Positions 1-1,623 of a stretch of 2,140 nt of DNA are shown in pieces. A model generated the notes under the pieces. It did not search any database and had not been told where the DNA came from. It worked only from the letters and a program-made list of their open reading frames with translations. Source of the DNA: Naegleria gruberi (lineage: Eukaryota). Each line of letters starts with the position of its first letter. Within the stretch, counting starts at the first letter, position 1. The stretch lies in assembly GCA_000004985.1 (NCBI GenBank), contig GG739287.1. The stretch is one strand, 5' to 3'. The translations under genes were made by a program, and so were the position numbers.

Positions 1-34
1 TACATGTAAACTCGTATTTCAAATCATGATGATT

Positions 35-59
35 GTACATGTCTACATGTCTACATGAA
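35..59. repeat. Short tandem repeat, (TACATGTC) x about 2.9, built from palindromic ACATGT cores. A further palindromic copy, TACATGTA, lies at 1-8.
   Basis: The sequence is tgTACATGTCTACATGTCTACATGAag. ACATGT is self-complementary, and cores occur at 2-7, 38-43 and 46-51, with ACATGA at 54-59. An additional palindromic ATCATGAT lies at 23-30 and a near copy ATCATGA at 142-148. Confidence 0.5.
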
Positions 60-223: not shown

Positions 224-269
224 AGTAAGATGCATTCGAAGAAACTGAGGTGTTACCATTCATCTTACT
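224..269. repeat. Perfect 9-bp inverted repeat (AGTAAGATG ... CATCTTACT) with a 28-nt spacer, in the ORF1 upstream region.
   Basis: Bases 224-232 (agtaagatg) are the exact reverse complement of 261-269 (catcttact). This lies about 210-250 nt upstream of the ORF1 ATG. It could be a protein-binding dyad or a cruciform/hairpin element. Confidence 0.45.
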
Positions 270-381
270 GACTTCTCAATAAGGTTGTTCCACAAATGTT
301 CAACCAATTCAATTCTCAGAAAACCATTGAACTCTATTAAACTCCATTGTAACTGTTGTAATCTTATTCTTTAAAAATTGC

Positions 382-388
382 TATAAAT
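382..388 (+). promoter_or_regulatory. TATA-box-like element (TATAAAT), about 90 nt upstream of the ORF1 ATG. An A-rich, G-poor leader follows at 400-474.
   Basis: I see 'ctataaattc' at 381-390. This sits in the typical yeast TATA-to-ATG distance window (40-120 nt). The stretch between the TATA and the ATG is almost pure A/T/C, like leaders of highly expressed yeast genes. I cannot see a transcription start site from sequence alone. Confidence 0.35.
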
Positions 389-474
389 TCAAATTATCAT
401 TCATTTAATCATTAAACAAATCAAAAAACAAATTCAATAGCTGAATAACTCAAAAACTATTAAAATCTTAAGAA

Positions 475-729
475 ATGACTGAACAAACTCACGAAGAATT
501 ATTCAACCAAAACATGTGTGGAAGTGGTTTGGCATTCAAGAAGGTAGTTCGTGAATTATTCAACAATCGAATTGTTCCTGCTACTAAGAATCTTCAACAA
601 GTCAATCCAAAGATGATCATCTTGTTGGATTGGGCTTCTCTTGCTGCATTTCCAACTGAAACCAAGTACAAGTATGGTGATAGATTTGCTGAAGATACCT
701 TGTTGAATAATTGTATCAAAAATTCTTAA
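475..729 (+). CDS. Small protein-coding ORF of 84 aa with unknown function. It is the first of three tandem same-strand ORFs and looks globular, with no low-complexity stretch.
   Basis: The ATG at 475 is the first in-frame start after an in-frame TAA at 469-471. A sits at -3 (aagaaATGa). The TAA stop is at 727-729. Codon usage is strongly biased (TTG, GCT, TCT, GGT, AAG, GAT, CCA, ACT), typical of expressed yeast genes. The antisense ORF 556-741 lacks this bias. I could not assign the protein (MTEQTHEELFNQNMCGSGLAFKKVV...) to any family by eye. Confidence 0.6.
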   Translation: MTEQTHEELFNQNMCGSGLAFKKVVRELFNNRIVPATKNLQQVNPKMIILLDWASLAAFPTETKYKYGDRFAEDTLLNNCIKNS

Positions 730-752
730 CCGAATGTCCAAGATTGAGCAAT

Positions 753-1013
753 ATGGGTGAAATTGGAAAGGTTTTCATCAAGGATCCTGATTGTAAGGAT
801 GCTTTCATGGGATTGGAAAAGTTGATTTTCAGAGTTGTTCACAATGCTGATAGTAAGGATTCTTCTGGTTTCCTTGGCTATTCTTACAAGGTTAATGGTT
901 CTGATTTGGTTGTCACTTTGGAATGCAATTTGACTCTTGTTATGAAGGTTGCCAATGAAAGACAAAGTCCATCTGCTGATTCTGAAGCTAAAAAGTTGAT
1001 TAATGCTTTCTAA
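753..1013 (+). CDS. Small protein-coding ORF of 86 aa from the first ATG, with unknown function. The frame is open from 711, but the TTG 'start' in the ORF track is not credible in a eukaryotic context.
   Basis: Frame 0 is open from 711 (after a TAA at 708-710) to the TAA at 1011-1013. The first in-frame ATG is at 753, with A at -3 (gcaatATGg). It shows the same codon bias as ORF1 (GGT, GCT, TCT, TTG, AAG, GTT). The protein is MGEIGKVFIKDPDCKDAFMGLEKLIFRVVHNADSKDSSGFLGYSYKVNGSDLVVTLECNLTLVMKVANERQSPSADSEAKKLINAF. Its alternation of hydrophobic strands suggests a small alpha/beta domain, but I cannot assign a family. The ORF may instead be the C-terminal part of a single ORF1+ORF2 protein (see findings). 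Confidence 0.55.
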   Translation: MGEIGKVFIKDPDCKDAFMGLEKLIFRVVHNADSKDSSGFLGYSYKVNGSDLVVTLECNLTLVMKVANERQSPSADSEAKKLINAF

Positions 1014-1504: not shown

Positions 1505-1561
1505 AATCTGCAACAAAAGACTACAGCACCACAGGTTCCCAAGTTGTCTCCAACCTCAGTA

Positions 1562-1600
1562 CTGTATGCTCCATATATGTTGTTTTAAAAATAGACTGGT
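1562..1600 (+). terminator. Probable mRNA 3'-end formation signals for the 475-1504 transcription unit.
   Basis: I see actGTATGCtccaTATATGttgttttaaaaatag, 60-95 nt after the ORF3 stop. TATATA/TATGTA-type efficiency elements followed by A-rich positioning-like sequence are the established yeast polyadenylation signal architecture. There is no rho-independent hairpin with a U-tract, which is consistent with a eukaryotic origin. Confidence 0.3.
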
Positions 1601-1623
1601 CAGCTATATTGTTGAAGTCTTAA

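Follow-up and report, generated by a model that had tools for sequence, protein, structure and literature searches.

As judged by comparison with their homologues, the two overlapping open reading frames that lie between positions 475 and 1013 of the window (the whole stretch of Naegleria gruberi DNA analysed here, 2140 nt) are the two halves of a single 178-residue N. gruberi gene, interrupted by a frameshift in a short run of A residues. The copy belongs, in disrupted form, to a Naegleria family that is annotated but uncharacterised, and a homopolymer frameshift of this kind is a routine phenomenon. Either this copy is broken in an ordinary way or its sequence contains an error, and programmed frameshifting is not the explanation.

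Reading frames and gene family

The first reading frame, ORF1, runs in frame 1 from an ATG at 475 to a TAA at 727-729 (84 aa in the ORF listing of the window), and its 3′ end reads ...TGT ATC AAA AAT TCT TAA. In frame 0, a TAA at 708-710 is followed by an open stretch from 711 to a TAA at 1011-1013, which makes up the second reading frame, ORF2 (100 aa). The two frames overlap by 16 nt (711-726), and the sole run of five or more A residues in this overlap is the A5 at 718-722. Adding one A to the run produces a 179-codon ORF, while removing two A's produces one of 178 codons. The overlapping frames and the A5 had been reported in a preliminary description of the window, and both the coordinates and the arithmetic of the single added A were correct on re-checking. 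By itself, the A5 run has little meaning in this window, which is AT-rich (about 32% GC) and contains ten A runs of at least five residues, two of them within the 475-1013 coding sequence.

When the two frames are joined, the resulting protein is identical at 176 of 178 residues (98.9%) to NAEGRDRAFT_54296 (P0018; EFC36594.1 / XP_002669338.1), a 178-aa N. gruberi entry annotated as a 'predicted protein', and it matches another N. gruberi protein, P0001, with 94% identity over 100% coverage (E = 5.6e-107). Expansion of the 90% cluster yielded five intact 178-aa paralogues, of which P0018, on a scaffold of 160,583 nt, is the closest to the window. The TTT codon at 649-651 and the 3′ flank beyond 1013 single out the window copy. 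The similarity of the joined window ORFs to this NAEGRDRAFT_54296-like family is full-length; the window itself contains no uninterrupted ORF of about 175-180 codons, which would appear only if two nucleotides were deleted, or one inserted, at 718-722. At the DNA level, BLASTN aligned the window with the homologous environmental locus L001 over 244-1013 (84.6% identity), with the environmental locus L002 also aligned over 273-363. Because the upstream segment 244-474 is conserved with L001, and in part with L002, the duplicated unit extends some 230 nt upstream of the ATG, into the putative promoter and 5′ UTR. The parts of the disrupted gene, all on the + strand, are as follows.

244..474, + strand: 5′ non-coding region, putative promoter and 5′ UTR, part of the duplicated gene unit (BLASTN against L001 and L002)
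475..720, + strand: N-terminal half of the gene, family residues 1-82 (Met1 to Lys82), frame 1; equal to P0018 residues 1-82 except for L59F (TTT, 649-651)
718..722, + strand: A5 homopolymer, consisting of the Lys82 AAA codon plus two extra A's (formally 721-722), the frameshifting lesion; opposite a 2-nt gap in L001 and L002, with AAA TTC in L001, L002, L007 and L009
721..729, + strand: out-of-frame tail of ORF1, AAT TCT TAA (Asn-Ser-stop), the premature stop arising from the frameshift (ORF listing and junction letters)
723..1013, + strand: C-terminal half of the gene, family residues 83-178 (Phe83 to Phe178 plus TAA), frame 0; equal to P0018 residues 83-178 except for F144L

The family to which this gene belongs is restricted to Naegleria and is multi-copy, with at least 15 gene models in N. 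gruberi and a length of ~178 residues. A profile search of 1.84 billion representatives returned nine relatives only, all from N. gruberi or from environmental Naegleria-like sequence. Pfam gave nothing above threshold for ORF1, ORF2, their fusion or ORF3 (a further reading frame, described below), and the family is thus without a Pfam domain. A scan of metagenome protein patterns confirmed no relatives, an exact-protein contig look-up with ORF1, ORF3 and an ATG-started ORF2 returned no other contig, and a literature search on the NAEGRDRAFT locus tags found nothing relevant. Loci L003-L006, which came from an exact 21-mer metagenome scan, were rejected as relatives, as BLASTN shows no further similarity and the matches are due to chance. 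Among the distant relatives, P0022 (505 aa, Logan/ENA ERR1078381) carries the family domain at its N-terminus and has a C-terminus that is weakly 2OG-Fe(II)-oxygenase-like (PF13640, E = 0.008, 17.5 bits, under the cut-off of 27), and two N. gruberi proteins, P0012 and P0021, are relatives of it. The fusion seen in P0022 is a possible functional lead for the family.

We modelled the joined protein with AlphaFold2 using an alignment of 12 diverse sequences (pLDDT 87.7, pTM 0.86); an earlier AlphaFold run on 6 close sequences had been unusable (pLDDT 37.8). The model is one compact α/β domain comprising residues 1-178, in which Lys82, the residue at the junction, lies inside helix 76-86, and no confident structural neighbour of this domain was found. 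As the predicted domain is single and compact across the junction, ORF1 and ORF2 are halves of one domain and not two separate proteins. That they might nevertheless be two genuinely separate small genes of 84 aa and 100 aa is suggested by their both being open frames with mechanical start codons, and this is the least credible of the readings considered here. The two ORFs match a single 178-aa protein end to end and form one domain in the model, the start of ORF2 is, in a eukaryote, a TTG located inside ORF1, and the split arrangement is found in none of the homologues, so that this reading is in effect refuted. The occurrence of two separate ORFs in orthologues had been named at the outset as an observation that would overturn the single-gene reading; when checked, the homologues were found to have one uninterrupted ORF.

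The lesion in the A run

The homologues indicate what the junction looked like before it was disrupted. All 12 aligned family proteins, a set that includes members just 28-49% identical to P0018, are gapless across the junction, where they read [I/V/M]-K-F-L with a single Lys (..CIK-FLTE..). The homologous environmental DNA loci agree, with AAA TTC at the junction in 4/4 (L001, L002, L007 and L009), so that the window letters, ATCAAAAATTC, stand against ATC AAA TTC in the homologues. In a three-way DNA alignment of ~540 coding bases, the sole indel is a 2-nt gap in L001 and L002 opposite the A run of the window. Since the only coding indel falls exactly in the A run, the association of the frame junction with the homopolymer is genuine and not a matter of chance. 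Furthermore, the presence of AAA TTC in all four loci, together with the single Lys, argues for an insertion of two nucleotides (AA) into A3, and not for an A6 that has lost one A. On the strength of these alignments, the reference state at the junction is A3 and the lesion in the window is a +2 (AA) expansion. Relative to its intact homologues, the window copy therefore carries a disabling lesion: two added nucleotides, followed by a premature TAA at 727-729. We also considered a variant genetic code, of the ciliate type or another, and dropped it, given the clear Naegleria identity of the sequence and the collinearity of the homologues.

These comparisons both support and amend the preliminary description. 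Its central proposal, that a frameshift in the A run has divided one gene into the two ORFs, is upheld by the single uninterrupted ORF and the single-Lys junction that the homologues conserve. Its single-base repair stands in part: one extra A does fuse the frames into 179 codons, but the ancestral run is A3 and not A6, and the Lys added by such a repair is absent in every homologue. The product expected from a -1 slip, given there as ..IKKF.., has to be corrected to ..IKNF.., because an Asn-tRNA decodes AAU before the slip takes place; this product is likewise one residue longer than any homologue.

Decay, error or recoding

Constraint on the sequence that follows the lesion was estimated by the Nei-Gojobori method. 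Between the window and L001, dS is 0.31 and dN/dS is 0.14 for the comparison as a whole and 0.09 for the part downstream of the shift, and the codon changes private to the window comprise 8 synonymous vs 1 non-synonymous. These substitutions indicate that, for practically its entire history, the frame downstream of the lesion has been subject to purifying selection. As coding constraint is kept downstream of the shift, the lesion is either very recent or not real, the latter being an assembly error.

We give about an even chance to a recent lesion, whereby the window copy would be a very recently inactivated paralogue or null allele, in other words a young pseudogene. The two extra A's would be present in the organism's DNA and no full-length product would be made. 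The proposed history begins with the AAA codon of Lys82, which would have grown by two A's (A3 to A5) through replication slippage. Such expansion is the usual outcome of slippage at mononucleotide runs. Translation would then proceed from Met1 to Lys82, incorporate Asn-Ser and stop at 727-729, giving an 84-residue product that amounts to half of the single domain and would presumably lack stability. The remainder, residues 83-178, has no start codon, promoter or initiation context of its own and would not be made; as possible starts, the C-terminal half offers only the TTG at 711, which is mechanical, and the ATG at 753, which is internal. The locus would thereby be non-functional, with intact paralogues such as NAEGRDRAFT_54296 supplying the function.

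Other members of the family also look disabled, which makes young pseudogenes a common occurrence within it. In L001, a GAA codon has become an in-frame TAA (~977-979), and the 30 codons after it, among them an AGT/TCT serine switch, are still conserved. In L002, an in-frame TGA stands in place of TGG at the family's invariant Trp (LLD-W-QAF), a position where the database protein P0005 is called with W. Together with the window, all three available close-subfamily DNA loci are thus disrupted. The N. gruberi models P0002, P0003, P0006, P0007 and P0008 have conserved segments that are skipped or lost, or show abrupt divergence; P0003 is without LLNNCIKFLTESPRLSNMS, exactly 19 codons around the A run of the window, while P0002 is without VFIKDPDCK. 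Several of the skipped-segment models among these five are located on scaffolds of several hundred kb. From their pattern, the skips look like the work of a gene predictor that placed introns around lesions in pseudogene copies.

The other outcome compatible with continued constraint is that the lesion does not exist. Here, the organism's DNA would have A3 and an intact 178-codon gene, with the extra A's having been introduced by mistake during base calling or consensus building in a contig of low coverage, and we regard this as a serious contender whose probability falls somewhat short of even. The window may in that case duplicate the NAEGRDRAFT_54296 locus, as an allele or a paralogue with poor coverage. 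Indel aside, the gene looks fully functional, as only 2/178 residues differ from P0018, dN/dS is low and the private changes run 8:1 in favour of synonymous ones; the lack of relaxed constraint after the lesion, under which dN/dS would approach 1, fits a recent lesion and a nonexistent one equally. The whole source is only 2140 nt in length, and other family members are also found on small N. gruberi scaffolds (1246-3039 nt), which suggests that these small scaffolds are low-coverage, unmerged repeat-family sequence. In addition, the lesion lies within a homopolymer, where indel errors concentrate. However, an over-call of 2 nt in a 3-nt run is unusual for a Sanger or Illumina consensus and counts against an artefact, as does the observation that real disabling lesions are evidently common in the family, also on large, well-assembled scaffolds. 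All readings other than a real young pseudogene or null allele and an artefact share, when taken together, at most a small residual probability.

Part of this small residue belongs to recoding. It is conceivable that a -1 ribosomal frameshift at C AAA AAU, or transcriptional slippage in the A run, restores a full-length protein of 179 residues, and we rate this as very unlikely. The required frame change is indeed -1, the A-site codon AAU is able to re-pair as AAA, and the frame downstream of the junction still looks constrained; moreover, the window, L001 and L002 have one lesion each and yet keep a coding-like substitution pattern. Nonetheless, the heptamer C AAA AAU (717-723) does not conform to X XXY YYZ, and its first base, a C, would force the P-site tRNA-Lys to re-pair on CAA. 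Folding of the RNA from 724 to 820 gave an MFE of -19.9 kcal/mol vs -20.1 ± 3.0 for shuffles (z = 0.07, by a method that models no pseudoknots), and Rfam returned no match in the junction region. The two-frame layout is found in no family member, close or distant, with the 12 proteins being collinear and the four DNA loci reading AAA TTC. The product would hold within a helix an extra residue that is absent from all homologues, and the lesions in L001 and L002 differ from each other in kind and site, as random decay predicts. With regard to transcription, slippage by polymerases typically needs about 8 or more A/T; the A5 is far shorter and does not qualify as a long-homopolymer slippage site. 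A search of the literature for recoding or frameshifting in nuclear genes of Naegleria found none.

In the preliminary description, programmed -1 frameshifting had been ranked as the least likely of three explanations, and our results lead to the same ranking: the heptamer, described there as imperfect, is non-canonical, the downstream region that it had proposed for checking contains no fold better than shuffled sequence (pseudoknots being outside the method), and no homologue is two-framed. A broader form of the idea is equally improbable and finds no positive support here, namely that the A5 is real, that the gene is still expressed full-length by low-level recoding, and that the family tolerates single lesions by means of frameshifting or readthrough. 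Such family-wide tolerance would explain the single lesions in the window, L001 (TAA) and L002 (TGA) alongside coding-like substitutions, and recoding, if true, would give Heterolobosea its first case in a nuclear gene.

More improbable still is a spliceosomal intron that spans the junction and whose removal restores the frame. There are 63 GT...AG pairs with a length of 2 modulo 3 that leave an open frame, for example 702-742 (41 nt), and the N. gruberi model P0003 skips exactly the junction region (LLNNCIKFLTESPRLSNMS). Each of the 63 candidates, however, would cost the compact domain 13 or more conserved codons at its centre, whereas homologous DNA and proteins are collinear through the junction apart from the AA, and these two observations together exclude an intron for practical purposes. 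The AG that a P0003-type intron requires is missing in the window, which has ATG GGT and not ATG AGT, and the skips in P0002 and P0003 are probably predictor work-arounds for lesions.

Neighbouring features and known systems

Three further features were observed in the window. Short direct repeats of TACATGT(C) occur at 1-57 (+), reading tacatgtaaa ... gtacatgtctacatgtctacatg. On the other side of the family gene, ORF3 (1025-1504, +) encodes 159 aa, is K/E/Q-rich and has its ATG 11 nt past the stop of the family gene, a spacing too short for a eukaryotic gene to be independent. In codon usage it is coding-like, with +0.55 bits/codon in its own frame vs -0.19 and -0.40 in the other frames. No homologue of ORF3 was found in 5.8 billion proteins, and the similarity of the window to L001 and L002 stops at 1013, i.e. 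before ORF3. ORF3 may represent an orphan gene or an exon, or else have arisen by chance in a sequence rich in A and poor in T. At 1518-1619 (-) there is a sub-threshold Rfam match to 5S_rRNA (23.8 bits, where the gathering score is 38; E = 0.056 over the whole window). The match covers model positions 1-120, with an internal stretch of 51 model positions covered by just 35 nt. The resemblance to 5S is convincing in the half that corresponds to helix IV/V, and TTTT comes after the 3′ end, while a UUUUU inside the element indicates that it is probably degenerate. This element is probably a degenerate 5S pseudogene, a 5S-derived element, or simply a product of chance.

For annotation, positions 475-1013 should be described as one disrupted or low-quality NAEGRDRAFT_54296-family gene, and not as two small ORFs. 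The locus has little importance beyond this, its minor value being to document a Naegleria-restricted, expanded family with many degenerate copies.

Among known systems, canonical eukaryotic and viral -1 programmed frameshifting sites, which combine an X XXY YYZ heptamer, a spacer of 5-9 nt and a pseudoknot or stem-loop, resemble the window in the -1 change and in the A-rich stretch ending in AAU at the junction. In contrast to such sites, the window has a different heptamer, a downstream region whose structure does not beat shuffles, and an arrangement that is conserved in no homologue. The closest counterpart of the gene itself is NAEGRDRAFT_54296, with which it shares length, start, stop and 176/178 residues once AA is removed from the window copy, and whose N. 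gruberi paralogues NAEGRDRAFT_63263, _52426, _54911 and _74215 belong to the same family. As for the lesion, the likeness is to frameshift pseudogenes and null alleles that arise by mononucleotide-run slippage, with a homopolymer indel, a stop a few codons on, intact paralogues, and sibling copies that carry other lesions. The window copy differs from this class in having no visible decay after the lesion, and the lesion would accordingly be either very young or not real.
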